A stretch of DNA of 59,139 bases, counting the filler, from Candidatus Woesearchaeota archaeon CG1_02_57_44 (GTDB taxonomy: Archaea > Nanobdellota > Nanobdellia > Woesearchaeales > CG1-02-57-44): the NCBI GenBank assembly GCA_001871415.1. It is 4 parts of 4 records of this genome, joined end to end, with 100 filler letters (N's around TTAATTAATTAA, not from the genome) between each part and the next. Parts side by side here need not be neighbours in the genome. Positions count along the whole stretch, not along the records: positions 26,430 to 46,378 come from MNWW01000003.1; 3 more parts are not named here. One strand, 5' to 3'. The position numbers and the translations under genes are program-made. The notes under the pieces were generated by a model. The model made no database searches. It was not told where the DNA came from and worked only from the letters and a program-made list of their open reading frames with translations. Below, in pieces: positions 3,794 to 46,478 of the stretch (position 1 is its first letter; each line of letters opens with the position of its first letter).

Positions 3794-3814
3794 ACAAGAG
3801 CTCGATACGCTGGC

Positions 3815-13200: not shown

Positions 13201-13300
13201 NNNNNNNNNNNNNNNNNNNNNNNNNNNNNNNNNNNNNNNNNNNNTTAATTAATTAANNNNNNNNNNNNNNNNNNNNNNNNNNNNNNNNNNNNNNNNNNNN
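13201..13300. other. Artificial contig linker (assembly gap)
   Basis: N44-TTAATTAATTAA-N44, stops in all six frames. Confidence 0.97.
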
Positions 13301-22718: not shown

Positions 22719-22780
22719 CTTACCGCTGATGATGGCCTCGACAGTGAATAGTCGGCACAACCGATAGAAGATGGGCAGCC

Positions 22781-26329: not shown

Positions 26330-26429
26330 NNNNNNNNNNNNNNNNNNNNNNNNNNNNNNNNNNNNNNNNNNNNTTAATTAATTAANNNNNNNNNNNNNNN
26401 NNNNNNNNNNNNNNNNNNNNNNNNNNNNN
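26330..26429. other. Artificial contig linker (assembly gap)
   Basis: N44-TTAATTAATTAA-N44. Confidence 0.97.
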
Positions 26430-27674: not shown

Positions 27675-27697
27675 ATCGCATCGCAATCTGATACACC

Positions 27698-28444: not shown

Positions 28445-28518
28445 GTCTGAGCAGATGAGGGTCCCCCTGTTGATGTTTTGGTACAATAGACTTTGCTAGT
28501 GATAGTTCCAGTAGAACT

Positions 28519-29631: not shown

Positions 29632-29801
29632 ATGCTGTATTTTGCGGAATGGAGCATATAAACATTTCTACTCGTCTTCACGCAGGGGTGAGCGCACATT
29701 GCATCAGGGCGGTCCCTGTCGCATGCTCGCCGCTATTCCTTGTGCCGCGTATTGACCTTGGAACGCACGGCTGACCCTATGACCGCCTGTAGCGTGCCGC
29801 A

Positions 29802-30701: not shown

Positions 30702-30934
30702 GCTTCATCCCTCGTCTGCCTATGCGCCGTATGCTGCTCGACAATGCTTGTGTTCGGGGAAACTAGTGCTGATATTGAAAAATGTTTCTATTTTTCAGTA
30801 GGTTCAACCTTTATGCTCATCGTTGGTCGCGTCGGGCATGGTGGCTTGATGCTGTTGCTCAGTGCCATCATTAATACTACTGAATCGTGGTTAATGTCGT
30901 AATATTTATATATGCGACAGACGTCCTCTCGTGC

Positions 30935-32338
30935 ATGACTGATGTGTCTGATGTGTCTGATGTGTCTGATGTGTCTGATCGTGCTGACGTGCCTGACCTG
31001 TGGACTGATGACGCCTTGGCTGTCGAAGGTGTCCCCTGGACTCCGTATGTCGCGTATCGCAGGCGCAAGGGCGTATCTGCTGACGCGCCCACCAGAGCGG
31101 ACGCGCTGCGATTGACGCCCTCTGAGGGTGATGTCCGCCATGGCAAGCGTCTGCAAGAAGCAGGACTTGCCTGGCTCACGCACGTGCTGGATGCGACCGG
31201 GCAATTCACGAGCATCAAGGCCACATCAGCGACGCCAGACAGGCAATACGGGTTGCTCCTCGCCCAAAAGAAACCATCCTATGTCGAGGACCGTGAGCCA
31301 TTCCTCTTCTCTGTGCAATTGCATACGCACGCGCCCGGCAGCCTGGAGCAGGTCCTGGCTGATATGGATTGGGCGAGCAGCAGGGGCATCGCGACAATCC
31401 TCATCGGCACAAAATACCTTGATTCCGAGGGCTGGATGTTTCGTCGGGGACTTCGTGAGCAGGATAGGCGGTCTGGCCGCGAGTATGGCGAAGCAGCGGC
31501 GCATCGCAAGCGCTCGCTCAGACATCCTGAAGCGCAGCGTCTTAATATGCCCTCCACGCCTGACAATGCCATTGACACGCGCGGACTGGAGCGTGACATC
31601 TTCCTGGCGCATCAGGTGACGCCCTTCTATCTGCAGCCTGCATCATCGCGGCTTGGGGCTGCTGTGCGCCGATTCGCGTTCCGGCCTGTGTGGATGTATC
31701 ATGAGGGGCAGCAGCGTCCCTTGGTGCAGTCTGTCAAATGGTATGACCCTCTGCCGCTGGAGACGCTCACGCATTTCACGCTCGTCCCGCAACCCAAGAT
31801 CGCTGCCCGCAAGACGCCGTATCTGATGGGCGATCTCATGGCGCTGCCTTCTGTGGAGAATCCCTACAAGGGCACGACGTCGAATACCCGGCATATGCGG
31901 CACGAATTCGGTCGTCTTGTCGACGCAATCGCGCGACTGGAATTTTCTGCCATGTCTCCTTGGTTGTATGATGGGCGCGCGCCATCTCTGGATACAGACA
32001 GGTTAGAAGCGCTCCGCATGCACGTGATGCGTACGATTCGTGGAAGAGCTACATGGGCCGAGGCAGGAGGGGAGCTCAATGCGCATCTTTCTGCGCTCTA
32101 TGAGCTCTTGCCAGGGGCTGCGTCAGTGCGCGATGATTTCCAGCCGGACCGACAGGAGTTTGTCGCGCATTATCCTAGCAGGAGCAATCCTGGAACGATG
32201 CATACGTCTCGACTGCGTGTCCCTGACGGTAAGATAGACAGTGCCCGTTTTGATTGTTCCTGCCCAGGGCATCAGTACCTGGACAAGTGTTGGCACGAGC
32301 GCGACCTGTATGCGCGCGTCGGCGCAAAGCAGCGTTGA
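30935..32338 (+). CDS. Hypothetical protein with C-terminal SWIM zinc finger
   Basis: CSCP......CWH near the C-terminus; TTTATATA box about 25 nt upstream of ATG 30935. Confidence 0.75.
   Translation: MTDVSDVSDVSDVSDRADVPDLWTDDALAVEGVPWTPYVAYRRRKGVSADAPTRADALRLTPSEGDVRHGKRLQEAGLAWLTHVLDATGQFTSIKATSATPDRQYGLLLAQKKPSYVEDREPFLFSVQLHTHAPGSLEQVLADMDWASSRGIATILIGTKYLDSEGWMFRRGLREQDRRSGREYGEAAAHRKRSLRHPEAQRLNMPSTPDNAIDTRGLERDIFLAHQVTPFYLQPASSRLGAAVRRFAFRPVWMYHEGQQRPLVQSVKWYDPLPLETLTHFTLVPQPKIAARKTPYLMGDLMALPSVENPYKGTTSNTRHMRHEFGRLVDAIARLEFSAMSPWLYDGRAPSLDTDRLEALRMHVMRTIRGRATWAEAGGELNAHLSALYELLPGAASVRDDFQPDRQEFVAHYPSRSNPGTMHTSRLRVPDGKIDSARFDCSCPGHQYLDKCWHERDLYARVGAKQR
30939..30979 (+). repeat. 9-bp in-frame tandem repeat (GATGTGTCT x4)
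   Basis: Directly visible; encodes DVS x4. Confidence 0.9.
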
Positions 32339-32346
32339 ATGCTCTG

Positions 32347-32583
32347 CTAATTCATGCTCAGCGCCTTAGCCAGGCTCACATTGCCGCAATTGAAGCAATT
32401 GCAGAACGTGCCGTACTTTCCTTCGAGAATATCAAGCCTCTCTCCACAGATACATTTGAGTGTCACGGTCGCATTCTTGTGATGGCTGCACACCGGCAGG
32501 CCCTGGCTGTTTCTGGCAATCGCCTGCTTGCCGCACAGCGGGCACTTGTCGATCCTGCTCTGACCATAGATTTTCTTGCGCAT
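32347..32583 (-). CDS. Small Zn-binding protein
   Basis: CPLC, CSHH, CICG, G.YG.FC.C..C motifs. Confidence 0.8.
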   Translation of the reverse strand: MRKKIYGQSRIDKCPLCGKQAIARNSQGLPVCSHHKNATVTLKCICGERLDILEGKYGTFCNCFNCGNVSLAKALSMN

Positions 32584-32682
32584 GGTACTGCTCCTCTCTC
32601 TGGTTGTCTCAATGCTGTTCGCTGTCGCAATAGTAATAAGAAAAAATACTGGCGACGTTGGTGCCAGTTGATGTGTTGTCGT

Positions 32683-33360
32683 CTATGGATAGAGTGATAT
32701 CCGCTTGTCGGTCATCAGGTCAGGCGTCTTGCCCTCTATCGACATCGCAGCGCCGACCATGGGAATCACGGTTATCTTGAACTTCTCGCTCTCATTGACA
32801 TGCCGCGATGATTTGAAGCAGACTTGTACCACATCGCCCTTGGTCAGGTAACCGCTCTTGTTGTTGGTCCCTGTTATCTGATACTTTGCGCCAAAGTATG
32901 TCCTGTTATAGTACGTGTCGTTGAGTGGGGTGAAATTCACATCAGCGCATCCCGCGATCTCACAGGGGGTATTCGGGCTTGATGTATTCTCGGTATAGTT
33001 GTATGTATAGGAGACATTGTCGCAGCGGGCAGTGGATGTGTATTGATATTGCGTAGAGCTGTCGTCAAGGTTCAGGGACATGAGCATGTCGGAAAGCCGC
33101 AGCTCATCAGAGCCGCTGGACAGCTTGATGGTCTGATACACCCAATCCAGCTGCTGGTCAGAGCCGTCTTCGGCGTAGGTGTCGATAATGCGTAGGGACG
33201 TTCCGACCTCGTGGCTCGTCGCCTTGCCTGTTGTCAACGCTTTACTCTGCAGGGTTCCGGTCGTGCTGATGAGCACTTTGGCAGCGACCGCCGCCACCAG
33301 AATCAACGCGATGAAAATGACCAGGGTACCCATGCCCATTTCTGCTTTACGCTCTGCCAT
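32683..33360 (-). CDS. flaB: Archaellin (archaeal flagellin)
   Basis: RKA|EMGMGTLVIFIALILVAAVAA.VLI.T.G.LQSKA..TG matches the canonical archaellin N-terminus; C-terminal LYP; GGAGGT Shine-Dalgarno. Confidence 0.9.
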   Translation of the reverse strand: MAERKAEMGMGTLVIFIALILVAAVAAKVLISTTGTLQSKALTTGKATSHEVGTSLRIIDTYAEDGSDQQLDWVYQTIKLSSGSDELRLSDMLMSLNLDDSSTQYQYTSTARCDNVSYTYNYTENTSSPNTPCEIAGCADVNFTPLNDTYYNRTYFGAKYQITGTNNKSGYLTKGDVVQVCFKSSRHVNESEKFKITVIPMVGAAMSIEGKTPDLMTDKRISLYP

Positions 33361-33490
33361 GATTGAGACCTCCAAATATCAAAAATCTGTTAGACCCTTA
33401 TGCTTTCTGGGTGCATTATTATATATAACTTCCGGCAAAATAATCCTGTTAGGACGACCTTAAATCTCTGTCTGGGGGGCATGCTGTTCC

Positions 33491-34132
33491 CTATGCGCGC
33501 TCCCAGGTCTCTCCTATGATGATATGATCCAGCAATGGGATGCCTATCAGTTCTCCTGCTTTCGCGATGGCGCGGGTCAGCTGCTGGTCTTCTTCTGATG
33601 GTGTCGGATCTCCTGACGGGTGGTTGTGCGCGATAATGACTGATTTTGCGCTCTTCTGGATGGCTGGTCGGAAAATCTCCCGAGGATGGGCAAGGCAACT
33701 GTCAAGGGTGCCTTTGGCAATCATTTCATGGCCTAGCACCTTATTGCGCACATCCAGGAACAAGGCTAGCAGATGCTCCTGTCGCAGATGGCCGATAATA
33801 GGTTTGCAATAAGTGAACACATCTGCTGCGTCTTGGATACTCGGGTTGTCTGGCTTTTGCGCTCTTCTAGTCAACTCAAACACGGCGATGAGTTGCGATG
33901 CTTTTGCCATGCCGATGCCAGGGACCTTGCGCAATTCATCAATGTCCGCCTGATGCAGACCTTCAAGGCCAAAATCCGCGAGCAGTCGGGACGCGAGGGT
34001 GATCGCGTTTTGTCCTTTGGTTCCGGACTGCAGCAGGATCGCCAGGAGCTCCGCGTCTGAGAGAGAGGCTATACCTTGCGCATAGAGTCGTTCCCTTGGC
34101 CGGTCGCAGACCCGAAGCTCTGTTATGCGCAT
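33491..34132 (-). CDS. radC: RadC family protein (HhH plus JAB/MPN)
   Basis: RPRERL, LSDAELLAILL, GIGMAKA, HPREIF, HNHPSGDPTPSEED, LLDHIII. Confidence 0.95.
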   Translation of the reverse strand: MRITELRVCDRPRERLYAQGIASLSDAELLAILLQSGTKGQNAITLASRLLADFGLEGLHQADIDELRKVPGIGMAKASQLIAVFELTRRAQKPDNPSIQDAADVFTYCKPIIGHLRQEHLLALFLDVRNKVLGHEMIAKGTLDSCLAHPREIFRPAIQKSAKSVIIAHNHPSGDPTPSEEDQQLTRAIAKAGELIGIPLLDHIIIGETWERA

Positions 34133-34339
34133 GGCCTGTAGCGCGATGCAGGCCTTAATAGCTGTTACTAGCAGAAAACCGGAGCTGTTTCGTTATTCCC
34201 GGAATTTGATGCATCGCGGGTAACTTCAGTCTTGGCAGCTGCTTTCTCGTTAACTACCACTCTGCAATGATATACAATAAAAGCCTATTGATTTTCAGCG
34301 CCAAAAGCATTTAAACCGCCTTACCATCCCTTTTTCGGG

Positions 34340-36673
34340 ATGATTTTCAGCCAGGTGCGGCTGCAGAACATACGGTCGTATGTGGATGAGACCATCACTC
34401 TGCCCGCGGGGTCTGTGCTCTTGTCAGGGGACATCGGAGCGGGTAAGTCCACTATACTTAAGGCCATTGAGTTCGTTATCTTCGGGCTGAAAGGCACGGA
34501 TCTTACGGGCTCAACACTGCTTCGCCATGGCGCGGGCAAGGGAATGGTTGAGGTCACGCTTGTGCTGGACTCTGGCGAGGTCATCATCCGCAGAGGTCTG
34601 AAACGCACTAAAACCAGCATCGTGCAGGATATCGGCAGTCTGCAGGCGAATGGCGTGCTCGAGGAACTCACCCCTGAGGAACTGCGGGCCAAGGTGCTCT
34701 TGTTGCTTGGCTATCCCGCAAGCGCGCGCAACGCGAATCTGCTGTATCGCTATACGGTCTACACACCGCAGGAGGACATGAAGCGCATCATCCTGGAGCC
34801 CGCGGAGCAGCGCCTGGAAATCATCAGGAACCTTTTTCTGGTTGATCGCTACAAGCAGGCCAAGCTGAACGCGGAGCTCGTCGCAAAAGAGTATAGGGCG
34901 CAGGCGCGTGCTCTTGAGCGAGAAGCGGCAGGAAAATCACTGGTTGAACAACGCGGCAAGCATGTCGCTGCTGCTCTTGCCAGCGCGCAAGCGGAATTGT
35001 CTGATACACAAGCGGCGCTTACCAAGACCAAGGGTCAATTGGAACAAGCATCTGCCTCTGTCGCTGCCAGCCGGCGCGATCAGGACGCGTTCACCGAAGC
35101 GCAGGCAAGACTAGGTAGTCTGCTCGCGACGCTTGATTCATTGAAAGGACAGGCCACGGGACTGCTCAAGGACAAGGCAGCGCTGGAACAGGAGCGGTTG
35201 GCAGTCATGCGGCAATTGGACAAGCTTCCTGGCGATTCGTCGCAGATTTCGGCAGCTCGCGCAGCGTTGCTGGCGGCAGAGCGCTCTCAGGCGAGCCAGC
35301 AGGCGCTCAAGCAGACCCACGCGGTGCTTGTCAGGGAGCAGGCGCAATATGTCAAAGCTGCTGCTGAACAGCAGGCCGCGCGCAAGCGACTGGCGACGTT
35401 GCCAGATGCCACTACGCTTTCACAACGTATCGAATCGCTGGAGCAGGAGTTGTCACAGTGCATGGCGCGGCGCGCCACAGTGCAGGCAGGCATCAGCGAA
35501 CAGGGACGCATATTATCAGAGCTTGAGGAGGGTGATGTCTGTCCGTTATGCAACCAAGACCTGACTGACGCGTACAGGGAATCGTTGCTGGGCTCGGCCA
35601 AGCAGCATGTCGCGGAGCACAATGCCACGCTGACAGGGTTGGAATCAGATCACGTGCGTGTGTCAGGGGCACTGGCTGGCGCCCGCAAGGAGGCAAAGGA
35701 CTACGACGCATTGCGCGAGTCGCTGCTTTCCCGATTGAACCTGCTTGATGGCAGGAAGGATACAACAGATGATATCGAGCGTGTGGATGCGCAACTCGCT
35801 GCCATCATGATCGCTGATCTGCCAGGACTTCGCGCTACTCTCGCATGTCTCGAACAGAAACAACAGCTTCTGGACAAGGCCAAAGGTCTTGAGGAGCGTT
35901 CGCAGTCAATAGCGAGTTCTATCGGCGAGGTCAAGGCGCGCATGGCGTCAGCGCAGCAGCAGGTCTCTGCCGCGCAGCAGGCCGTCGACTCCCTAGCGCA
36001 TGCCAAAGCTGCGTTCGATTCAGCTCTGGCAATGCAGCAGCAGGCCAATGACGCGCTGCTGCAGGCGAAGAGTAGGGAGTCGCAGGCGACCGCGGCTCTG
36101 GCGGGATTGCAGCGCGAAGCCGCGCATCTGGCAGAACAGCTCGCGTTGCTTGCGGAAAAGCAGCGGAGCGCGCAGAACTACACCACACTTGCCACATGGT
36201 TGACAGGATTTTTCAGCCCCCTGGCTGAGACCATTGAGCGCCATGTGCTGCATGCTATACGCGCTGAATTCGGGCAGGTCTTCTCATCCTGGTTCTCAGC
36301 CATCCTTGATGATGAAGGCATCGACGCGCGACTGGATGAGAGTTTCAGTCCCCTGCTTGTGCAAAACGAGTATGAGACAACGCCCCAGCACTTATCGGGA
36401 GGCGAGCTCACGGGTCTTGCGCTCTCGTATCGTCTCGCGCTCAACAAAGTGCTCAACAATCTCACGCAGGGCATCGCCACACGCGATGTCCTCATCCTTG
36501 ACGAACCCACAGACGGATTCTCCTCTGAGCAGCTTGACCGCGTTCGCGATGTGTTTCCGCAGACCGGAGCGAAGCAGACCATCATTGTCAGCCACGAGCC
36601 AAAGATAGAGGCCTTTGTCGACCATTGTCTCAGGATCCATAAAGAAAATGCGACCAGCCAGGTGATAGCATGA
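34340..36673 (+). CDS. rad50: Rad50/SbcC-type SMC ATPase
   Basis: Walker A GDIGAGKST; coiled coil with CPLC Zn hook; LSGGE; ILDEPTDG; IIVSH. Confidence 0.88.
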   Translation: MIFSQVRLQNIRSYVDETITLPAGSVLLSGDIGAGKSTILKAIEFVIFGLKGTDLTGSTLLRHGAGKGMVEVTLVLDSGEVIIRRGLKRTKTSIVQDIGSLQANGVLEELTPEELRAKVLLLLGYPASARNANLLYRYTVYTPQEDMKRIILEPAEQRLEIIRNLFLVDRYKQAKLNAELVAKEYRAQARALEREAAGKSLVEQRGKHVAAALASAQAELSDTQAALTKTKGQLEQASASVAASRRDQDAFTEAQARLGSLLATLDSLKGQATGLLKDKAALEQERLAVMRQLDKLPGDSSQISAARAALLAAERSQASQQALKQTHAVLVREQAQYVKAAAEQQAARKRLATLPDATTLSQRIESLEQELSQCMARRATVQAGISEQGRILSELEEGDVCPLCNQDLTDAYRESLLGSAKQHVAEHNATLTGLESDHVRVSGALAGARKEAKDYDALRESLLSRLNLLDGRKDTTDDIERVDAQLAAIMIADLPGLRATLACLEQKQQLLDKAKGLEERSQSIASSIGEVKARMASAQQQVSAAQQAVDSLAHAKAAFDSALAMQQQANDALLQAKSRESQATAALAGLQREAAHLAEQLALLAEKQRSAQNYTTLATWLTGFFSPLAETIERHVLHAIRAEFGQVFSSWFSAILDDEGIDARLDESFSPLLVQNEYETTPQHLSGGELTGLALSYRLALNKVLNNLTQGIATRDVLILDEPTDGFSSEQLDRVRDVFPQTGAKQTIIVSHEPKIEAFVDHCLRIHKENATSQVIA

Positions 36674-37644
36674 CTATGACAGCATCAAAGAAGCGCAAGG
36701 CAAACGCAGGAAAGACAAATAAGAAAACCACTCGGTCTGCGTCTTCGCAAACGCCAGCGCGAAAAAAAGCGCCCTTGAAAGGCAAGGGGGTCAAACGAAA
36801 AGGCACAGGCAAGAAACCAATCGCTGGCCGAACATTGGTAAAACGTGCTGTCGTCAAGAAGCAATCACGGTCAGTATCACAGACGCGCAAGGTGAAAGGT
36901 CCTGCAAGAAAAACGGTTCGACCGGTCCGCAAGTCCGCTCCTGCGCGAAAGACGGCGTCCCGAGCGCCCAGGCAACGCGCTGTTGTGAAGCGCCCCAAAT
37001 CAGCCGTCAGGGTGTCTCGCAAGGCTGTTGGCAAAGCGCGCGCAAAGGCGAATGCGCGAGCAAAAGCGAAGCCACGCGCAGTCAAGAAGAGGATCAATAA
37101 GGCCAACGCGTCCAGATCACGACCAGCAAAGCCACCGCGCAGCAGGTCAACCAAGAGCCCTGCTCAGAAACGCGTTGTGAAAAAGAGGGTGGTACGGAAA
37201 CCTGTGAGAAAGAGTCCTGTCAGGAAACCCACGAAAAAATCCCCTGGAAAGAACCAGGTCAAAAGGCGCGTCCTGAAGCGCGGCGAGAGCGCGTCAAAGC
37301 GTGCCTCCAGCAAGCAGAAGGGCTTCGTGCACAAGCAGGCGAAGCCTGCCAAGACACGGCTGGTGAAGAAAAACGTCATCAAGAAAAAATCTGTAAAATC
37401 GGCCAAAAAGAGCCCTGTCAAGAAGCGGCCTGCGGTCGGCAAAAAGGGCGCTGCAAAAAAAGCCGGCGCCAAAAAACAGGGCGCGGCAAAAAAACAAGTC
37501 AAGGCTGCAAAAAAAGAAGATGTGCCACCCTGGCGGGAAATCAAGCGAACTCCTCATGCGCTGCCTAAGACAACGCACCGCATGCACAGCGATAGGAGCC
37601 GACTTCCGCCGCACAAGCGCTTCTTCATCGATATGCGTGAGTGA
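36670..37644 (+). CDS. Lys/Arg/Ala-rich histone-H1-like (Hc2-like) protein
   Basis: 324 aa of K/R/A/S/P/V low complexity with almost no acidic residues; ATGA overlap with rad50; AGGTGAT Shine-Dalgarno. Confidence 0.75.
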   Translation: MTMTASKKRKANAGKTNKKTTRSASSQTPARKKAPLKGKGVKRKGTGKKPIAGRTLVKRAVVKKQSRSVSQTRKVKGPARKTVRPVRKSAPARKTASRAPRQRAVVKRPKSAVRVSRKAVGKARAKANARAKAKPRAVKKRINKANASRSRPAKPPRSRSTKSPAQKRVVKKRVVRKPVRKSPVRKPTKKSPGKNQVKRRVLKRGESASKRASSKQKGFVHKQAKPAKTRLVKKNVIKKKSVKSAKKSPVKKRPAVGKKGAAKKAGAKKQGAAKKQVKAAKKEDVPPWREIKRTPHALPKTTHRMHSDRSRLPPHKRFFIDMRE

Positions 37645-37834
37645 GCGTCGGACAGTCGGCAGCTGGTCAGTGATGCAAGGGCAGCATGTCATCGCGTTGC
37701 CCTGTACGCGTGTGGTTGCTCTGGTGAGTATTGGTCCTTGGATCACCGCGGCGCATTTCCCATACCTTTATTAGCGGCTGTACCGGTAAGTGCCATCAAC
37801 GCGCGCTGATTGCGTTCAGAAACGTGTGAGCATC

Positions 37835-38626
37835 ATGTACGTTCCCTCAGAATCCCACCTCGCATTGTCCATGCTCTGGTATCTCATCAAGTTGCCGTTT
37901 CTGCTGATAGCGTCTATTTTTTCAGAACACGCTCGCCACGACCTGCTTGAGCCGCTGGATAAGATAGTGCATTTCTTGCTGACCGCGCCGTTCACGCTCT
38001 CGCTGGCGCTTGTCTGTTTTCTGAGCTCATTGTATGGGTTCTGGCTCAGCTACAACGGGCAGGACGCGCTTTTTCAGTCATTGATGTGGCAGCCGTCATT
38101 GCTGCTCGGCTGGCACCCTGTCGCGCTCTTCGCCCATCTGTTCCTGCACGCGTCCATCGCGCACCTGCTCGGCAATCTGTTGTTTCTGCTGGTCTTTGGC
38201 AGGGTCGTGGAGCGCAACATCGGCTGGCGCGTCATCCTGGTGTTCCTGCTCGCAGGCGTCTTCGCCAGCCTCAGCTACTCTGCCATTCACTTAGCGCTTG
38301 GCGGCAGCGGGTATCTTCTCGGCGCGTCAGGCGCCATCATGGGGCTGGTCGCGACAGCTATATTATTTGAGCCCTTCTACATCTCCTTTGTACTGATACT
38401 GCCCTTGCCCATCATGGCCATCGGGTTGCTGCAACTGTTCACGGACGCGCTCGGTGTTCTCACACCGACGGATAATATCGCGCATCTCGCGCACATCATG
38501 GGCTTTGCCTCGGTCACGCTCGTTGTCTGGCTGTTGGCTCGCGAGCGAAAGAAGCTGCTCAAGGGCCTGCTGGTGAATGTCGCGGCTGTGGTGGCGCTAC
38601 TGGTGTGGTGGTTTGTGAGCGGATGA
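37835..38626 (+). CDS. Rhomboid intramembrane serine protease
   Basis: FLHASIAHLLGN, GASGAI, AHLAHI.G; start uncertain. Confidence 0.92.
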   Translation: MYVPSESHLALSMLWYLIKLPFLLIASIFSEHARHDLLEPLDKIVHFLLTAPFTLSLALVCFLSSLYGFWLSYNGQDALFQSLMWQPSLLLGWHPVALFAHLFLHASIAHLLGNLLFLLVFGRVVERNIGWRVILVFLLAGVFASLSYSAIHLALGGSGYLLGASGAIMGLVATAILFEPFYISFVLILPLPIMAIGLLQLFTDALGVLTPTDNIAHLAHIMGFASVTLVVWLLARERKKLLKGLLVNVAAVVALLVWWFVSG

Positions 38627-38716
38627 TAGGTCTGCATCTATGGCTCGCTGAATCACTGGTCCTCATCCTGCCTGGTTCCACAACGCTTATAACCTTCGGA
38701 GCTGCTGGTAGTCAAC

Positions 38717-39556
38717 ATGGCGTCCTGTCTGTTCTGCGGGCTCATCAAAAAGCAGCAGCCCAATACCATCGTCTCCAATGACGCGGTGGTCGCGCTACTG
38801 GACAAACGCCCGAGCGTCGCTGGGCAGATCATCGTGCTCACACGCAACCATTATCCGCTCCTCAGCCAGATTCCTGACCGCGAATTGGCAGAGCTGCTCG
38901 GCAGCGTCAAGAAGATATCACAGGCGATGCTACGCACCTATGATGTCGCGGGCACCACGGTGCTCGGCCGTGTCGGGGTGGAGGCAGGGCAGATTGTGCC
39001 GCATGCATCGCTGGTGGTCATGCCCCGCTATGAGGGTGATGGTGTCGGCCTTGATGTGCCTGTACCTGCTAGCGCAGGTTGCAACCTTTGTCAGATGGAA
39101 GGGGTGTCTGAAGAATTCGGCGATGCTGATACGCTCTGCTTTCAGCTTGAGGGGTTTGCGGGGTTGGGGGTTGCGACCAGGGCTCATTATCCCATCCTTG
39201 AGGCCGTGCCCGACCAGATGCTCGAGCCGCTTGGTCGAACGCTCAAAGAGGCCATTCAGCTCATGCTCTCCAACTGGAATGCGTCTGCTGTCACCGTACT
39301 GCTACACAACGGCATCCCTGCCGGACAGCGCATGCCGCACGCAGTTTTCTGGCTTATCGCGCGCGAAAAAAATGATGGACGGTTCTCGCTGCCTGAGCGC
39401 GCGGTCGGCGAGGAGGACACGGGTCGCATTGTCAGCGCGATGCGTGAAGCTCTTGTTGGCATGGGTGGGCCTGTCGGGGTCGAAACAATGCAATCAGCGC
39501 AAGTCAGCAATGAGGTCAGTGATTATCTCCTGGAGAAATTAAAACGGGTTCCATAA
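38717..39556 (+). CDS. Tandem HIT-family protein with degenerate triads
   Basis: CLFC and CNLC starts of two domains; AGQIVPHA and AGQRMPHA in place of GQxVxHxHxH. Confidence 0.8.
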   Translation: MASCLFCGLIKKQQPNTIVSNDAVVALLDKRPSVAGQIIVLTRNHYPLLSQIPDRELAELLGSVKKISQAMLRTYDVAGTTVLGRVGVEAGQIVPHASLVVMPRYEGDGVGLDVPVPASAGCNLCQMEGVSEEFGDADTLCFQLEGFAGLGVATRAHYPILEAVPDQMLEPLGRTLKEAIQLMLSNWNASAVTVLLHNGIPAGQRMPHAVFWLIAREKNDGRFSLPERAVGEEDTGRIVSAMREALVGMGGPVGVETMQSAQVSNEVSDYLLEKLKRVP

Positions 39557-39558
39557 AA

Positions 39559-40140
39559 TCATTCGTCTGGTCCGCCTTCGTCTTCATCTCCTGACTCCTC
39601 GTTATCAGAGTTGTCTTCGTCTGAGGGGACTTCCTCGCGCGTTCGAGGGCATCCTGTTGATCGCTTTCGTTTCCCGTCATCGTACTTGTTGCCGTCTTGG
39701 TTTCTTGCGGATTGGTAATTCTCGGCGTCTTTGCCCGTATAATGAGCGCCTTCGCTTTCACTCCAGTCGTACTCGTTGGTGCTCACTTCGCTATCGAGCG
39801 CATAATTGGGATGCAGGTCGTCTTCGATATCGACGTCCTTGCCGTATTTTCCCTGGAGAGCATGCTTGACGACTTTGTATGCTTCTTTCATGACCGTGTC
39901 CTCGTCGGTCTTGTCTTGCTTGCCATTGCCGCTATAATGGTCGATGGCATGGCCGATAAGCTCGTAAGAGCCGCCCAAGGTCTCTTTGACCACATCATAG
40001 GCGACTTTCCGGGCATGCGCTTTATCGTAGTGAGAATGTCCGCTCGGCCAGGAGGTATTGCCTGATGACAGCGCTGCCTCAAGGCCTCCCATGTCCACAT
40101 GCTGGCCCATCACTGTCTGGCCTGCCAGGTAGCTTGTCAT
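39559..40140 (-). CDS. Hypothetical acidic protein
   Basis: 193-aa ORF with D/E-rich tail; AT-rich promoter region upstream. Confidence 0.6.
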   Translation of the reverse strand: MTSYLAGQTVMGQHVDMGGLEAALSSGNTSWPSGHSHYDKAHARKVAYDVVKETLGGSYELIGHAIDHYSGNGKQDKTDEDTVMKEAYKVVKHALQGKYGKDVDIEDDLHPNYALDSEVSTNEYDWSESEGAHYTGKDAENYQSARNQDGNKYDDGKRKRSTGCPRTREEVPSDEDNSDNEESGDEDEGGPDE

Positions 40141-40279
40141 ACAGAAGATAGAATATGTCCCAGTTTATTAACTTTACGGTAGTAAAAAAATAAAAAATAT
40201 TTATAAATTGTTTATAAAGACTTGGTTCCTGTATCTGCCCCCTGTATCTTTCAGGGTAGATGGAGCATTCTTCCCCGGT

Positions 40280-40906
40280 CTATTCCTCTCCCGGGATCTG
40301 TCCGGGGCATACTCTGTCAGGGAACACGTCCACTTTCCCGAATCGGTTGACTACTGCTCCACTAGCGCGGCAACGCAACATATAGGTGTTCGCGCGGTCA
40401 GCTAGCATCCCTGCCCTTGACAGGGCGTCCTTGACCGTCATCCCTCCGAAGTAACCGCCGATGCCTTCATCGCGTTCCACTCTGGGGTATGCTACAGCCG
40501 CCAGTTGCTCCCATCTTCTTGTCAGGAACGTACCTGGCTCTGCTGGCGCGTCAGAGCGCTCATAGCTGCCGATGGGAAACTCACGCGCGACCACTATGGG
40601 CTCAAAGCCCACGCTTCTTGGTATCAACAGCGGCGTCATGAGCCACCCATCATAGAGCTCATTGAAGGCATTGGCAAACGCGGTCAGGATGGCACCATCC
40701 CCTTTTGTCTGCACCTCCAATGGCCGCATGCTCATGCGGTCACTTGGATCCGGGTTCATGACGTACCAGGTCCCCTGTGTTCTGGCACTGCTGCTGTAGT
40801 CTTGAGGGAACACATCCCTGAGGCTTTGTCCGAGCAGTTCATCAGTCTTCACACCTGCTCTTGAAGCGAGCAGTTCCACTAGTTCATTCAATCGCATGTT
40901 CTTCAC
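40280..40906 (-). CDS. Hypothetical protein
   Basis: 208-aa ORF; an AGGTGA Shine-Dalgarno suggests a start at 40897. Confidence 0.55.
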   Translation of the reverse strand: MKNMRLNELVELLASRAGVKTDELLGQSLRDVFPQDYSSSARTQGTWYVMNPDPSDRMSMRPLEVQTKGDGAILTAFANAFNELYDGWLMTPLLIPRSVGFEPIVVAREFPIGSYERSDAPAEPGTFLTRRWEQLAAVAYPRVERDEGIGGYFGGMTVKDALSRAGMLADRANTYMLRCRASGAVVNRFGKVDVFPDRVCPGQIPGEE

Positions 40907-41187
40907 CTGTTGTATCCAACCGGCCTATTGCCGGCGGCAGTAAGCGTATCACGCTGCTATCACTGCAGTCCTGAGACTGAGGTGATGCAGGTCGGTCGCG
41001 TTGCGCGGACTTCCTGCTGTTGGAGTCACACTTCGCAGAAGAGAGGCACCGCCAGCATCACAACAGCGGATGATGAACTGAATCCGCGCGGGTGGCGCTG
41101 GTTACCTGTGCCATGATGCACGGGGAAGGAATGGTGTGTAATAAACTTTGTGGAATCCTCTTGCGCGCAGCTGCACCTCGCACGGTC

Positions 41188-42045
41188 CTATGGCATCGCG
41201 GCCAGCAGCACATTGCCCCACAGCATCGTCATGAGAAACGCGATGAGAAACGCGGGCATGAAGGGGATGCCGACTTTCAGCAGTACCTTCTTCACCTTTC
41301 CTTCACGGTGCAATCTCTTCAGCAAGCGTATCTGCTCTTTTGTCACGCCCAGATCCTTCGGACCGGTGATGCGTTTTTTTCCGACCATGACATCTTTCGC
41401 TATCCAGTCGCCTTCGGTCAGTCTCGACGGCGCGACCCATTGCAGCATGGCTGAATCCTCCACTGCTTTGGCGAAAGACCAGAGGATGAGCAGCAGGGCG
41501 AGCAGACCTGTCAGCGTCCCTGCCAGATAGAGGGCCTCGCGCATCGGCAGTATGGCGAAACATACGATGATGAGCGCCACGATGACCAGGGCAAGCGCGT
41601 AGACTTGCTTTGGCAATCGGGTGAATGCTGAGCGCATCGCTGTCCAGGTCTTTTTCGGACGTAGCAGCCCTATGACCAGCGAGTAGACAAGGCCATACAA
41701 CGCTCCGGCGATGACCAGATTGAGCAGGAACGCGAGCGTGAAATCTGCGCGGGTCCAACCAGCGATGCCGACGAGCGCGCCTACGCCCATGAGCGCCTTG
41801 GCGTCGCCACCGCCCCACTGCCCAAGGTAGTACATGACATTGGCCACCACGGCGCAGACGAGCACGCCATAGACGCCAGCGAGCAGCGGCTGCCAGGAGA
41901 GCAGAGCGATCGAGAACAGCAACCTGATGCCGATGCCGGACGCCATCATGCTGTAGGACACCCAGTCAGGCACTTCGCGTTTCTTGATGTCTGTCGCCGA
42001 GCCGATGACGATGCCTATCAGCGCGAGCAGCAGCAGGAATTGCAT
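41188..42045 (-). CDS. Prepilin/prearchaellin peptidase (A24 family, FlaK/PibD-like)
   Basis: TDIKKREVPD, WGGGDAK, LTEGDWI, IPFMPAF; multi-TM. Confidence 0.92.
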   Translation of the reverse strand: MQFLLLLALIGIVIGSATDIKKREVPDWVSYSMMASGIGIRLLFSIALLSWQPLLAGVYGVLVCAVVANVMYYLGQWGGGDAKALMGVGALVGIAGWTRADFTLAFLLNLVIAGALYGLVYSLVIGLLRPKKTWTAMRSAFTRLPKQVYALALVIVALIIVCFAILPMREALYLAGTLTGLLALLLILWSFAKAVEDSAMLQWVAPSRLTEGDWIAKDVMVGKKRITGPKDLGVTKEQIRLLKRLHREGKVKKVLLKVGIPFMPAFLIAFLMTMLWGNVLLAAMP

Positions 42046-42204
42046 GATGCTCTGCGACGCCGGGAGGTATAAATATCATTCGATTTGTGCTGAGGGCGTG
42101 ACTTATCGCGCCGCTTATTGCGCTGTCCATTGCTTTCATTTCCTCCCCACATGGACTATGCTCTCGTTCCCAATCGCTGGTCCATTCTCCTCCTTTTCCC
42201 TTGT

Positions 42205-43308
42205 TCATTCCTGGCGCAGCGCTATCCGTGGTCGCGCAGCATAGCGAAAGCCCATGCGCTCTCCTGTGCTGGCGACATACAGCGCCGCGTGCGCGAGGCA
42301 GGAGCCGACCACGATGTTCGTGGTTATGACCGACGGGATGGGGTTGTCCTGGCATGATGCCCTCTGCGCGGGCGTCGGTCCGGGCGTCATCGGAACATTG
42401 TCTCCTGGCAGGTAGGTTGCGACCTGCCCAGCATGCGCGCCAGCGCCGCCGTCGACGTAGGGGATGCTTCTCGCGTTCATCACCTTGGCTGCTGTTGCTC
42501 TGGCCGCGCTGTTGTCCAGGCACCCTACGAGCACGCTGCCTGGCCGGAAGTGTCGCGCGCTGCACTTCTCAAGGTACTGCGGCACTGCCACATATTCGTG
42601 GGGATAGCGGGCGGCGAGGGATTCCGCGAGCACCTCGGCCTTATTGCCCTGCTCCAGCGCGTAGAAGAACTGCCTGTTCAGGTTGCGGCGCTCCGGGATG
42701 TCAGGGTCGATGAGGGTGAATCGCGCCTGCTTATGCTGCTGCACGCAGGCGTAGGACAGGACCAGCGACGCTATCGTGCCAAGGCCTCCGCAGCCCGCGA
42801 TGACAAAGTCAGGGCGCTGCAGAGTAGGGGCATCTGAGACCTGGATGCGCGGTTCATCCGCACACTCCTGCTCTAAGGGAGCGATGGTCGCGCGTAACAA
42901 CTCAGCGCCCATACCTGCGCAGATGCCCTGCACGCTGGCAGGACCTGCTCCATCCAGCGCCACCAGCGGTGTTGCCCCGACCCATTGCTCCACCCGGGCG
43001 CGGTCATGGCCGCCTCCTGCGAGCAGGCCGTCCAATGACGGCAATGCATGACGTGAAAGCGGCATATCCATGTCCAGGTCCCAGCAACCGACGCTGCATG
43101 AGGGGGTGATGGCGCGCAGCTCATCATCAGTGAGGAAACAATCCTCCTGGCGCTGGCCTATCAGATGCGCGTGGCCGAATCCCAGGCACTGCAGGCAGAT
43201 AGCGGCCAGGTCAGCGCCGAAGGAGCGGCCGATGACAGCGACTGATTTAGTCGCCAGCAATGCCTGATACTCATCGCCCCAGTCATGCGACGTGAATCGG
43301 TCAACCAT
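42205..43308 (-). CDS. E1-like enzyme with tandem ThiF/MoeB domains (degenerate plus active)
   Basis: Domain 2: AGCGGLG, DPD..ERRNLNRQF, KAEVL, CLDN..AR, RASC (candidate catalytic Cys). Domain 1: degenerate VAVIG..FGA...CL..LGFG. Confidence 0.85.
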   Translation of the reverse strand: MVDRFTSHDWGDEYQALLATKSVAVIGRSFGADLAAICLQCLGFGHAHLIGQRQEDCFLTDDELRAITPSCSVGCWDLDMDMPLSRHALPSLDGLLAGGGHDRARVEQWVGATPLVALDGAGPASVQGICAGMGAELLRATIAPLEQECADEPRIQVSDAPTLQRPDFVIAGCGGLGTIASLVLSYACVQQHKQARFTLIDPDIPERRNLNRQFFYALEQGNKAEVLAESLAARYPHEYVAVPQYLEKCSARHFRPGSVLVGCLDNSAARATAAKVMNARSIPYVDGGAGAHAGQVATYLPGDNVPMTPGPTPAQRASCQDNPIPSVITTNIVVGSCLAHAALYVASTGERMGFRYAARPRIALRQE

Positions 43309-44920
43309 GGGCGCTCCGGTTCATGCTCGCCAGCAGCGCGAGCGCCAGCAGCACCTGACGCTGCTCTTCTGACAGGGTGTCTCTTTTTTTCCACACTTCC
43401 TGCATCGCTGCCTTGCGCTCTGTCCAGGGTCTTCTGCTTGCCATGAGGTCCGCGAGCCGTGAGAGCTCGTCATCAGCGCCTGTCTGCCTGTACGTCGCGG
43501 CTATCGCCTTGGCTGCGGCCGTATATCCGATACCGTCTGGCGCGCTGCGGTTCCTGCCCATGAGGTACTGAGCGCAGATGCCTTGCAATCGCGATCCTTG
43601 CGCGCTGCTGGACGCAGGGTCCTGTTGCTGTCCTGATCCTTCGTCGCCGCTGCCCATCCCGTGCAGTGCTTTGCGCACATCATGGATGCGCTCAGACCAT
43701 CTTCTATGATGGTCTCCAGCGAGCGCGGCTCCCAGTCCTGGCGAGATGACGCGCATGACCTCGGCCACCTCGCGATAGCCCAGACGTGCGGGCTGAAAGG
43801 TGATATCCGGGTCCAATGGCAACGTCGCCCTCGCGCAGAGGAAATACTCCTGCTCTGTCTCTGCTGTGTACTCGCAGATGCGTGTCCCCAAGGAGGCATG
43901 GCTGAATGTCCTGTCCACGCGCATGAGCGCATGCTCCACCGTTGTTGTCCGTTGCGCGTATGCCAGGGCCTGACCTGCCTGCAGCGAGGGTACACCGACT
44001 TTCGCCGCATGGTATCGATAGAACGGATGGACTGTTCCTGCCTGCATGCTGACCGGGATAGGCGCTCCTGCGAGGATGCTGATGGCGCGGCACCAGTCGA
44101 GCTTCTGATACGATGAGGGCTCTATCAGCGTAGTGCCCAGTGAGAAGCCCCCGGGTATGTGTGCGGGATTGTTCTGCGATGGACTTGGCGCTATGCGTGA
44201 TAGCGGCGCGGTGATCCGTGGCGGCGGCAGATTCCTCGCAGCTTCCACTGCTGCTGGGACCGGCTGATGCTCATGGGTGAGATGCGCCAGCGCTTCCTCG
44301 ATGCTCTGCTGCGGGGTCCGTGGCAGTATTGCGGGTTCATCGGTCCAATGTACCTGCATCGGTGTCGCTTTGACATTGCCTGTCGCGTCCATGACCAGAT
44401 GCTCCGCGTATTCTGTCCCCAGGCCGCTGATTATCAACTGATATCCCTGATGCTCCTCGCGGGGAAGGCTCAGGCGCACATGTATCCTGCCAGCAGGTTC
44501 CCCTGATGTGATGCTATAGTCCTGCCAGGGTGCTTGCAACCGCGCGTGATGCCAGCCCTGCTGATCAGCGATGAGCGGCCCGTCATACTCCACCAGGTTC
44601 TCTAATGGTTTTTTCCAGCAAGATTCCTGCCCTGCTATCCCTGTCCTTGCCGCCCTATCGAGTCCGGAAGGATTCGGACCGAAGCGAGGATGCGTATGCA
44701 CACGTCCCAGCGCTATCATGTTGTCTGGTATGGGTGCGCCATGGCCGGTGCAACGTGTCTGGCTAAGGTCCATGACCTGATGCAAAGAGACTCCCCTGAT
44801 GGTGCCGTCGGGCGAACCGAACGGCTGGCCGATTATCTCATACGGTTCCTGCACAATAGTCTCCAGCAAGCCACCGCAGCTGAGCATATAGTCCTTCACA
44901 CCTCGAGGGACGGCGAGCAT
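43301..44920 (-). CDS. JAB/JAMM (MPN+) metallopeptidase-domain protein with large C-terminal extension
   Basis: E (PYEIIG) and HTHPRFGPNPSGLD give an exact H-x-H-x7-S-x2-D; start 44920 forms a TGATG overlap with the upstream stop. Confidence 0.75.
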   Translation of the reverse strand: MLAVPRGVKDYMLSCGGLLETIVQEPYEIIGQPFGSPDGTIRGVSLHQVMDLSQTRCTGHGAPIPDNMIALGRVHTHPRFGPNPSGLDRAARTGIAGQESCWKKPLENLVEYDGPLIADQQGWHHARLQAPWQDYSITSGEPAGRIHVRLSLPREEHQGYQLIISGLGTEYAEHLVMDATGNVKATPMQVHWTDEPAILPRTPQQSIEEALAHLTHEHQPVPAAVEAARNLPPPRITAPLSRIAPSPSQNNPAHIPGGFSLGTTLIEPSSYQKLDWCRAISILAGAPIPVSMQAGTVHPFYRYHAAKVGVPSLQAGQALAYAQRTTTVEHALMRVDRTFSHASLGTRICEYTAETEQEYFLCARATLPLDPDITFQPARLGYREVAEVMRVISPGLGAALAGDHHRRWSERIHDVRKALHGMGSGDEGSGQQQDPASSSAQGSRLQGICAQYLMGRNRSAPDGIGYTAAAKAIAATYRQTGADDELSRLADLMASRRPWTERKAAMQEVWKKRDTLSEEQRQVLLALALLASMNRSAHG

Positions 44921-46378
44921 CAGTGCACCTCCACGACCGGCACATTGTCCGGCGCGCTCGTCCTGCATGGGAAGCTGTTGAGCCGATGGTATGGTGTGCA
45001 GGAGGATACATACCCATGCGTCAGCACATCGATGCCCAGCCGCTGCACAGACGCGGCCAAGGCCCTGCCAACCTCTCCCCGTGCGATGAGTTCGTCAATG
45101 GCTTCGCCTGTGGTGGTGGCGGTGCCGTAGCATATGCTCCTGTACCCCCTCGGAAGAAACGGGTGCTGATACGGATCGAGCGTCTCTGGACCGGGCACCT
45201 GCGGGTGTATCTTGACGCCCACCCGCACCGGTTCAAACACGTAGTACCTGTCGTTCTCCTTGTAGCAGTGCCTCGGCGCCCATTTGTAGACGTATGCCTG
45301 GCCCTGCACGATGGCGGTCCCGCAGATGTCGTCCTGCCGGGGCAGGGGGGCGATGATGGCGGAGCTGACCCTCTCGACGAATTCTGCGCTGGAGGCAGGC
45401 GCACCCTTGTAGTCGACATCACCGATGCGGGCCGTGACGATGGGCTGTCCTGACGTTGCTCTGACGAGCTGTGCATAAGAATCCTGATTGAAGGCGAATG
45501 GTCCCTGCGCGAGCAGGAGCTGCTGCATCTTTGCGATGAGCCCGACGCTGCTCTCATGGTCTGTGTCCACGAGATACGTGAGGGCATCGACAGCCAGCTC
45601 ATGCGTCCTGTGCGTGAGCATCGCCCTGCAGAACTCATCGAGGCTGATTGCCCTTCGCAGGTAGGTGCGCTGCCCTTCCCAGTCGAGCCAGCTCCCTGAG
45701 GGTCGATGCTGGGCGACATATACAGCGTCGGCGATGATGCCAGTGGCTGCGCCCAGGTGCGAGACGATATTCTGTGCCAGAGTACTGGCCATCGGATCAG
45801 CACCATCCGCTGCTTGGGCCGGCGCGGGCGCCTTCACTGATTCAGCGCTAGGTCGCGATCTACCCGTCGCTGCTCCCTGCCTTCCGGGCAGCCTGCGCAC
45901 AGGGGAGAGGATGTCCAGCAGGCCTGGCTGCCTGCGCGAGGGCAGCAGGTCCTCGAGCGGATCAGGGAACAATCGTCTGGTGATGGGATCCTCGTTGCGG
46001 AAATCATACTGTGGTGTGATGTCGTGGTATCCTGCTGTGTTGCCGGTGTTATGGAGCAGGTCGGTGACGGGTGTCGATAATCCGTCAGCAGCAAGGCCTG
46101 GTGTGCGCGAGGGCAGCAAGCCGTCGAGCGGATTAGGGAATAATCGTCTGGTGATGGGATCCTCGTTGCGGAAATCATACTGTGGTGTGATGTCGTGGTA
46201 TCCTGCTGTGTTGCCGGTGTTATGGAGCAGGTCGGTGACGGGTGTCGATAATCCGTCAGCAGCAAGGCCTGGTGTGCGCGAGGGCAGCAAGCCGTCGAGC
46301 GGATTAGGGAATAATCGTCTGGTGATGGGATCCTCGTTGCGGAAATCATACTGTGGTGTGATGTCGTGGTATCCTGCT
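44920..46378 (-). CDS. Putative E2/UBC-like protein with N-terminal 57-aa repeats (5' truncated by gap)
   Basis: C-terminal YQHPFLPRGYRSICYG followed by helices resembles the UBC HPN...ICL catalytic motif; frame open into the gap. Confidence 0.6.
45933..46378 (-). repeat. 171-bp near-perfect in-frame tandem repeat (at least 2.6 copies)
   Basis: Identical blocks at 46101 and 46272; unit LPSRTPGLAADGLSTPVTDLLHNTGNTAGYHDITPQYDFRNEDPITRRLFPNPLDGL. Confidence 0.93.
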
Positions 46379-46478
46379 NNNNNNNNNNNNNNNNNNNNNN
46401 NNNNNNNNNNNNNNNNNNNNNNTTAATTAATTAANNNNNNNNNNNNNNNNNNNNNNNNNNNNNNNNNNNNNNNNNNNN
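46379..46478. other. Artificial contig linker (assembly gap)
   Basis: N44-TTAATTAATTAA-N44. Confidence 0.97.

Follow-up and report, generated by a model that had tools for sequence, protein, structure and literature searches.

A candidate four-gene protein-tagging operon in Candidatus Woesearchaeota and its relatives among DPANN archaea

The DNA analysed here is a stretch of 59,139 nucleotides (the window) from the assembly of Candidatus Woesearchaeota archaeon CG1_02_57_44 (GCA_001871415.1), a tiny groundwater archaeon, and its subject is a set of genes at positions 42205 to 46378 that encode an E1-like activating enzyme, a protein with a JAMM metalloprotease motif (the JAB protein) and a candidate E2-like carrier (gene 1). 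Together with a small candidate tag gene, located directly upstream of gene 1 on a metagenome contig, these genes probably constitute a four-gene protein-tagging operon (tag, E2-like carrier, JAMM protease and E1), built like the bacterial BilABCD operons. Operons of the same class recur in Woesearchaeales-type DPANN archaea, among which that of the window is divergent. This class is real, recurrent and unannotated; the roles of carrier and tag within it are ones that we infer.

A recurrent operon with two recognisable enzymes

The three window genes lie on the minus strand with their ends overlapping, as had been read from the sequence alone. The ATG of the JAB gene (44920) and the stop codon of gene 1 share one base (TGATG), and the JAB stop overlaps the E1 start by 8 nucleotides (ATGGTTGA). 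The likely start of the JAB protein is M17 at 44920, which gives a protein of 539 amino acids and agrees with the 539-amino-acid form of the public record; an alternative ATG is present at 44968. Once the metagenome contig (L002) supplies the upstream part, the operon reads tag, E2-like, JAB, E1, and all four genes are translationally coupled.

The window E1 was searched against 401 genomes of the phylum and matched in 88 of these. Outside the window's own genome 104 places were listed, and reading frames of at least 380 amino acids, about twice the length of MoeB or ThiF, enclose 55 of them. We fetched 36 loci from 30 genomes and called open reading frames with a simple script, which yielded 505 context proteins, and E2-like, JAB and small-tag families were defined by iterative searches within this set. 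These families comprise 31 E2-like proteins, 30 JAB proteins and 28 small proteins, and the jackhmmer run also recruited the tag candidate of the window operon (P0008). According to Pfam, the E1s of the first 16 loci have neighbours of the Prok-JAB or JAB type, 224-618 amino acids long, and many other proteins near these E1s match no family. E1 is present in 34 of the 36 loci, the E2-like protein in 30, JAB in 28 and the small tag in 26; E1, E2-like and JAB proteins occur together in 24 loci, and all four components in 20. Genes are ordered either tag-E2L-JAB-E1, as in the window, or tag-E2L-E1-JAB (E2L, E2-like gene). Several E1 loci can be present in one genome, for example in G332, G021, G249, G264 and G277. 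Inspection of homologous loci for a ubiquitin-like (Ubl) gene or a sulfur-transfer context, which the sequence-only reading had called for, turned up a small protein ending in Gly-Gly and no sulfur-transfer genes: rhodanese, ThiG, MoaE and other sulfur-pathway families were not found among the 218 neighbouring proteins scanned across the 36 loci.

Within the window E1, Pfam ThiF (PF00899) matches residues 161-346 at 1.1e-18 (67.7 bits against a cut-off of 28.1), and all of the motifs noted beforehand (GCGGLG, NLNRQ, CLDN..AR and RASC) were located (Table 1). Judged from its sequence, the protein is a ThiF-type, two-half E1 with a conserved loop cysteine. Its description as a tandem-ThiF enzyme holds in part: the N-terminal half aligns to the first half of the E1s of its relatives, of which all 16 in the first 16 loci contain ThiF and 10 of the 16 contain two ThiF stretches (Pfam), but this half of the window protein gives no Pfam ThiF match of its own. 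In the alignment of 35 E1s (A6), residues G172, G174, D201, D203, N209, R212, K223, D265 and N331 are kept in all sequences, and Cys319 of the RASC motif in 34. The putative catalytic Cys319 is part of the crossover loop, a short one that separates the PG motif from PSVITTN. An inserted CYS domain, a ubiquitin-fold domain (UFD), a rhodanese domain and the Zn-binding CxxC...CxC are all lacking from the window E1; most of the related E1s carry a CxxC after the PG motif and a CxC near the C-terminus, and the window enzyme has neither. Its first half is also approximately 60 residues shorter than in the relatives.

The best solved relative of the window E1 is the SUMO E1 subunit UBA2 (1.2e-8), with MoeB behind at 5e-4. 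When the E1 family profile was compared with solved structures, the eukaryotic E1 catalytic subunits came out marginally ahead (UBA2, 6.6e-39; Uba1, 5.3e-37, with both halves matched; UBA3, 2.9e-36) of ThiF (4.5e-36) and MoeB (1.1e-35), and BubCD (5.6e-24) and Cap2 (1e-19) were well behind the eukaryotic subunits. A word-index homology search with the E1 returned the query itself as the sole match.

The JAB protein carries the exact JAMM signature that had been proposed for it (E41...H91-T-H-x7-S-x2-D104). The JAMM domain occupies about the first 110 residues and is followed by approximately 430 residues that match no family, more than the roughly 300 first estimated. A profile built from the 30 operon JAB proteins scores the window protein weakly (10.9 bits), with the catalytic Glu and HxH...SxxD aligned, and feature and structure leads from the atlas point to Prok-JAB clusters. 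The protein had no match in the word-index search, jackhmmer from its two halves recovered no relatives among the 505 context proteins, and no relative was found for the C-terminal 430 residues or so.

Profiles built from the relatives only were used to score the window operon's proteins against 1000 shuffled versions of each. The E1 reached 138.8 bits (best shuffle 1.0), the C-terminal domain of gene 1 57.8 bits (best shuffle 3.0) and the tag P0008 18.3 bits (best shuffle 5.7). As these scores are far above those of the shuffles, the motifs represent more than chance.

Table 1. Positions of the operon genes, domains and motifs (window coordinates, unless a contig or residues are given)
Feature	Position	Strand	Remarks
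E1-like activating enzyme	42205..43308	-	367 aa; Pfam ThiF match
E1 motif RASC	42352-42363	-	putative catalytic Cys319 = 42352-42354
E1 motif CLDNSAAR	42499-42522	-	
E1 motif NLNRQ	42670-42684	-	
E1 motif GCGGLG	42778-42795	-	
Active adenylation half of E1	aa 161-346	-	Pfam ThiF
Degenerate, shortened N-terminal Rossmann half of E1	about aa 1-160, 42829-43308	-	
JAMM/MPN+ metalloprotease-motif protein	43301..44968	-	555-aa open reading frame
JAB motif HTH-x7-S-x2-D	44657-44698	-	
JAB motif EPYEIIG	44828-44848	-	
E2-like carrier candidate (gene 1)	44920..46377	-	485 aa seen, 5' end cut by contig end
Conserved C-terminal domain of gene 1	44923-45414	-	
Gene 1 HPF-x8-C motif, HPFLPRGYRSIC	45130-45165	-	H-P-F 45157-45165, Cys 45130-45132
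171-bp (57-aa) tandem repeat, gene 1 N-terminal region	45916..46378	-	2.7 copies, 96% matches
Tag open reading frame P0008	L002:182-580		132 aa, directly upstream of gene 1; ends ...GDSIYLKMRLNQVGG-LHEPTFRM

The candidate carrier and the candidate tag

The protein encoded by gene 1 combines 57-amino-acid tandem repeats and a low-complexity linker with a helical middle and a C-terminal domain that is conserved; in other assemblies its full-length form has 459 or 516 residues. The repeat was defined with Tandem Repeats Finder (period 171), and its copy number differs across assemblies, with one copy in the 459-residue form, two in the 516-residue form and at least 2.7 in the window (variants P0001 and P0013). 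In run X1, the repeat unitig has a depth of 54 versus 29-33 for its flanks, about 1.8 times as much. The C-terminal domain contains the HPF.....ICYG stretch that had been pointed out previously, and in the 459-residue form the motif reads H379-P380-F381...C390, placing the Cys 11 residues after the His. In the E2 signature, the catalytic Cys follows a conserved HPN by about 8-10 residues.

The gene 1 protein matches no family in Pfam, PADLOC, NCBIfam or PDB, and a word-index search returned the query itself as the sole match (1 of 3123 candidates). When the last 292 residues were compared exhaustively with 1.84 billion representatives by phmmer, six matches at E <=1e-3 emerged, of which only P0003 (427 amino acids) shares the C-terminal domain, at 33% identity and a pairwise E of 3e-20; the elements kept between the two are PRH-Y, YVF, Y-HPF, R-ICYG and GID-L-GY. 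In the fetched loci, 31 proteins whose genes lie beside E1 genes have a homologous domain. These E2-like domains are merely 14-24% identical to that of the window, and yet the His is kept in 31 of 32 sequences, the Pro in 29 and the Cys in 31; the distance between His and Cys is 10-15 residues. The second Cys of gene 1 (CTPY) is not conserved.

Two further observations concern other parts or variants of the protein. Variant P0012 differs from gene 1 by four substitutions within the 20 residues after the conserved Cys (TTT to ATI, E to G, R to Q) and is identical to it outside this cluster. The helical middle (window 45495-45770; residues 10-102 of the 292-residue part) is weakly similar to a cluster of 136-amino-acid proteins (P0007, E 7.1e-4), with which it shares ...YVAQH-P-G...DW-G... 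residues.

The sequence-only reading had placed the modifier gene upstream of the operon, beyond a gap. What follows the operon at 46379-46478 is not a sequencing gap inside the locus but an artificial joint between unrelated contigs (N runs flanking TTAATTAATTAA). The contig, and with it the operon sequence, thus stops within the 171-bp tandem repeat, and the window DNA from 46479 on is not upstream of the operon. A modifier encoded from 46479 onward was accordingly rejected, as that DNA comes from another contig.

An upstream candidate was found on L002, a metagenome contig of the Joint Genome Institute (1739 bases) and the one return of a scan with the alignment of gene 1 and P0003. Over 991 bases, L002 and the window agree at 99.6% identity; the contig includes the 5' end of gene 1, here with a single repeat copy, preceded by upstream DNA (L002:1-751). 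The tag reading frame P0008 has its stop codon 23 bases inside the first ATG of gene 1, or 19 bases before the second, and its product ends in ...YLKMRLNQVGG followed by eight residues (LHEPTFRM). A contig of 1019 bases from run X3 covers L002:31-1049 and one of 804 bases from run X1, possibly the source sample, covers L002:1-801, both without differences, so that at least one independent assembly also places the tag next to gene 1. A contig of run X5 reaches 448 bases past L002. Public records list an identical tag sequence as a hypothetical protein from Candidatus Woesearchaeota metagenome-assembled genomes, with a longest contig of 6337 bases, and the same length is recorded for the full-length gene 1 protein and for the E1. 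A search of L002:1-700 against Rfam yielded nothing meaningful. The expectation of a modifier upstream is thus borne out by a candidate directly upstream of gene 1 in L002, although this gene is not in the window.

A GG followed by 0-11 residues is present in 19 of 25 tag-family proteins, one of which ends exactly in GG; other members have single-Gly or other C-terminal ends. All members have a strand of the form ...Y-x-x-L-E/D-I/M-x-V... before the Gly-Gly.

Proposed mechanism and competing readings

In the tagging operon that we favour, the JAMM protease would remove the eight-residue tail of the 132-residue pre-tag and expose ...VGG. The E1, a single-chain pseudo-dimer, could then adenylate the terminal Gly and take the tag onto Cys319, a chemistry for which the conserved residues are in place. 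From there the tag may be handed on to the C-terminal domain of gene 1, onto the nearly invariant Cys that follows the His-Pro by 11 residues. The variable N-terminal part of gene 1, with its 57-residue repeats, might choose the targets, as proposed for Bil E2s, and the JAMM protease may also strip the tag from these targets. The patchy, multi-copy and fast-diverging distribution of the operon class and the variable repeat array favour a role in conflict or defence. Unfoldase genes beside some relatives suggest tagging for unfolding or degradation.

A series of results weighs against this reading. For the carrier, neither the window protein nor the 32 family members match the Pfam UQ_con and Prok-E2 families even at E 10, and the family profile finds no match at E 10 among 177,635 PDB sequences. 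The residue after His-Pro is Phe in 20 of the 32 domains and otherwise Ser, Ala, Gly, Tyr, Leu or Cys, and is never the Asn of HPN. PADLOC, including its BilD model, is unmatched by the E2-like or tag proteins (24 proteins of relatives), and an hhalign comparison of the E2-like family with one Prok-E2_E protein from another DPANN locus gives a probability of 0.1%. The AlphaFold2 model of the E2-like part, built from a two-sequence alignment, is unusable, with a predicted local distance difference test (pLDDT) score of 31.5. For the tag, searches against beta-grasp families are negative in Pfam and PDB (one member matches ThiS at 0.077), hhalign of the family against 24 local ThiS/SAMP proteins gives a probability of 0.8%, the single-sequence AlphaFold2 model (pLDDT 46.2) is likewise unusable, and the gene is absent from the window and from the genome bin. 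As for the enzymes, the window JAB protein is below every curated cut-off (Pfam Prok-JAB, 0.037 and 14.4 bits against a cut-off of 25; PADLOC JAB, 0.014), and the window E1 departs from its relatives in both the missing Zn-binding cysteines and the shortened N-terminal half.

UQ_con was found in none of 301 genomes of the phylum, a search that was also silent in all 14 control genomes. A tblastn search of phages with the E2-like domain returned four records, all at E 4 or worse, and scans of genome contigs and viral contigs with two-sequence alignments gave no match, with patterns that were poorly chosen. Complex prediction for E1, residues 1-124 of the tag and the E2-like domain gave no answer (score 0.01) and is evidence neither way. 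The model of the E2-like part consists of a helix, four strands, the HPF loop, the Cys and three helices; this corresponds to the order of elements in the ubiquitin-conjugating (UBC) fold, which in a model of this quality can serve as a hint at most. Atlas features of the E2-like domain score 0.96 against clusters of phage hypothetical proteins and 0.92 against a cluster in which 11% of members have Prok-E2_D, and both serve as leads only.

With no profile link to UBC or beta-grasp proteins and with poor models, the E2 and Ubl roles are assigned from context and motifs. The E2 call of the sequence-only reading, already marked there as the weakest link, therefore stands as far as the nearly invariant Cys and His-Pro of 32 domains go, and not for a UBC fold or family, where Pfam, PADLOC, PDB and hhalign are negative. 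Similarly, its broader proposal of a distinct Ubl-conjugation system is upheld for the E1 and JAB components, which are real; carrier and tag stand as candidates, and the system is not unique to this genome.

The same cascade could instead serve housekeeping, with the tag marking proteins for AAA+ unfoldases or the proteasome, as a DPANN counterpart of ubiquitin- or Pup-type tagging. AAA ATPases indeed adjoin the tag gene or the operon in relatives (matches to the proteasomal-ATPase OB domain in L043 and L058; AAA_2 in L040, L046, L050 and L063). The window operon itself, however, has no adjoining ATPase. The E1 type is moreover confined to a minority of genomes (matches in 88 of 401, and 55 of the 104 listed places in frames of at least 380 residues), several copies can occur in one genome, and the JAB protein of the window is missing from 40 genomes of the same order. 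Such a distribution is unlike that of a core pathway, and we consider a housekeeping role doubtful.

A second alternative is two-enzyme tagging without an E2, similar to sampylation, in which gene 1 would be the main target, an adaptor or E3-like factor, or a co-occurring regulator. This would account for the negative outcome of every E2 homology test, and archaeal small archaeal modifier protein (SAMP) systems run on E1 and JAMM alone; the E2-like gene was also not detected in 4 of the 34 loci with an E1. For a substrate, on the other hand, a nearly invariant His-Pro...Cys in a domain of otherwise 14-24% identity is hard to explain, and the gene is kept in 30 of 36 loci, usually between the tag and JAB or E1 with overlapping ends. 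In addition, an ordinary ThiS/ThiF pair exists elsewhere in the genome: on contig C18, a ThiS-family gene (20414-20581) lies approximately 2 kb from a second ThiF-family gene (22759-23169), a pair that is SAMP/ThiS-type and separate from the operon. Tagging without an E2 is therefore judged unlikely.

Third, the genes might mature a sulfur carrier or a peptide, producing a thiocarboxylate (as in CysO/Mec+ or QbsCDE) or a modified peptide (as in MccB or PaaA), with the JAMM protein acting in trimming only. Carrier trimming by JAMM proteins is known in sulfur-carrier-type pathways, the tag shows no detectable similarity to ubiquitin in Pfam or PDB, and ThiF, MoeB, MccB and PaaA match the E1 family profile at 4.5e-36 to 3e-23. 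Eukaryote-type E1s nonetheless score no worse than ThiF and MoeB, the crossover-loop Cys is kept in 34 of 35 E1s, a protein with a conserved Cys is encoded between the tag and the enzymes, and neither the window contig nor the 36 loci have a conserved rhodanese, cysteine desulfurase partner, ThiG, MoaE, YcaO or further gene of a biosynthetic pathway. We regard this reading as quite improbable. Identity with a CBASS (cyclic-oligonucleotide-based antiphage signalling) or Bub system was rejected, as there is no CD-NTase, no fusion and no DUF6527.

Relation to known systems and genomic setting

BilABCD operons (Type I/II Bil, formerly CEHH/6C) are antiviral Ubl-conjugation operons of bacteria. The tagging operon proposed here shares several features with them: the order tag, E2, JAB, E1 (window and L002 combined), a single-chain E1 with an inactive and an active adenylation half, a pre-tag with residues past the reactive Gly, which in Bil are cut off by the JAB protein, the lack of an E3 gene, and variable N-terminal parts. 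The corresponding description of Bil operons is of an Ubl-E2-DUB-E1 order, where DUB denotes the deubiquitinase that pre-processes the Ubl, and of an E1 with inactive and active adenylation domains (IAD-AAD) (10.1101/2023.09.26.559546; PMC11601596). Several features are unlike Bil. The host of the window operon is archaeal, and the tag and carrier are not recognisable as beta-grasp and UBC proteins. The window JAB protein has approximately 430 extra residues. None of the three window proteins has a PADLOC Bil match; BilD, the one of PADLOC's Bil models confirmed in the set used, is silent on the window E1 at E 1 and reaches 0.002 and 0.015 in two of nine scanned E1s of relatives. The carrier has His-Pro before its Cys, whereas for BilB a Cys followed by Glu/His/His (CEHH) is described (10.1101/2023.09.26.559546). 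The Cys of the window E1 lies in a short loop and the enzyme has no Zn cysteines, in contrast to the mobile alpha-helical CYS-domain insertion and Cys4 zinc site described for Bil. Gene order, the two-half E1 and the tailed tag are thus shared, and detectable sequence homology, Cys domain, zinc site and E2 signature are not; we therefore regard the operon as Bil-like in its proposed working and not as one of the Bil operons.

The ubiquitin operons of Caldiarchaeum and Asgard archaea encode ubiquitin, E1-like and E2-like proteins, a small RING protein and an Rpn11-like protein. They resemble the operon class in being archaeal and in combining an E1, a Cys carrier, a JAMM protease and a Gly-Gly modifier, and the window E1 family scores best against eukaryotic E1 catalytic subunits; the window operon, in contrast, shows no ubiquitin-family, UQ_con or RING match. 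With SAMP1-3/UbaA/HvJAMM1 it has in common a ThiF-type E1, a JAMM protease and a small protein with a Gly-Gly end, but SAMP systems lack an E2-like protein and use ThiS/MoaD-type tags of about 64-90 residues that end exactly in GG. Type II CBASS comprises an E2-E1 fusion and a CD-NTase, both lacking from the window operon, although E1, E2-like and JAB components are shared with Bub and CBASS Cap2-Cap3, and PADLOC Cap2 (E1-E2) models match the E1 half. Bub systems have Ubl-E2 and JAB-E1 fusions or an E2-E1 fusion, together with BubE, and Ser-based E2 chemistry (PMC11601596); neither such fusions nor BubE of this 6E/DUF6527 type are present in the window operon.

No published description of such an operon in DPANN archaea was found in the sources accessible to us; the supplementary tables of the Bil preprint could list archaeal examples. 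Outside eukaryotes, complete E1-E2-DUB cascades have been described in a few bacterial defence systems (Bil, Bub and CBASS) and in rare archaeal ubiquitin operons, and a recurrent DPANN version would extend them to the smallest, host-dependent archaea. As tag and carrier escape all current family models, they would be new test cases for a minimal E2 and a minimal ubiquitin-like tag, and the operon class would bear on an antiviral versus a proteolytic origin of tagging systems. A bolder interpretation, which we put forward as speculative, is that of a widespread and undescribed DPANN tagging system whose tag and Cys carrier are new families, possibly with new folds, independent of ubiquitin/ThiS and UBC, whose E1 is as close to eukaryotic subunits as to ThiF/MoeB, and which in some lineages is coupled to proteasome-type unfoldases. 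If true, the E1-E2 relay would gain a separate branch or would have been re-invented by convergence, and the window copy would be a fast-evolving variant with a carrier repeat array of variable length for target choice. The testable features of this copy are the zinc-less E1, the JAB protein with its large extension and the carrier with its variable repeat array.

The window consists of contigs chained by linkers, so that gene neighbourhoods cannot be read across the joints; two more of these, at 13201-13300 and 26330-26429, are likewise N runs around TTAATTAATTAA linkers. Positions 26430-46378, which include the operon, represent contig C54 of an assembly of 77 contigs and 1.53 Mb. The earlier statement that thiamine, molybdopterin or tRNA-thiolation genes are not adjacent was confirmed for this contig by family scans of its proteins. 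PF14460 was not found in the window's own genome. A tblastn search of plasmids with the E1 of a relative returned 236 records, mostly MoeB/ThiF, and the three regions inspected were thiamine or TfuA/YcaO contexts.

Various genes flank the related operons. AAA ATPases are encoded directly upstream of the tag gene at L039:11289-12770, L043:1636-3108 and L058:10156-11649; the proteasomal-ATPase OB (oligonucleotide/oligosaccharide-binding) match is below the cut-off in L043 (0.0013, 19 bits, cut-off 23) and above it in L058 (24.6 bits, cut-off 23.4). ClpB/Cdc48-type AAA_2 proteins are found beside operons at L040:4523-6037, L046:8421-9884, L050:4220-5335 and L063:13675-14850. Ser/Thr protein kinases and transglutaminase-like proteins occur in similar positions (L042:8573-9958, L043:7813-9642, L062:8769-10424, L055:4066-4635, and L063:1741-2856 and 3794-4696). 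In another DPANN genome, a Prok-E2_E protein (L056:8113-8724, minus strand; 6.9e-6, above cut-off) is followed directly downstream by an E1 with an N-terminal JAB-type HSH...S..D motif (L056:6609-8099, minus strand); this arrangement is Bub/6E-like and distinct from the window operon class.

The remainder of contig C54 carries ordinary archaeal genes, among which are those for archaellin, a Rad50-like ATPase, RadC, rhomboid, HIT, phosphatidylserine decarboxylase and A24 prepilin peptidase proteins. A RadC-like JAB protein is encoded at 33491-34132, on the same contig as the operon. The Rad50-like ATPase (34340-36673) is followed by a reading frame of 324 amino acids with no assigned family, and the protein encoded at 38717-39556 has an N-terminal HIT domain and about 170 more residues.

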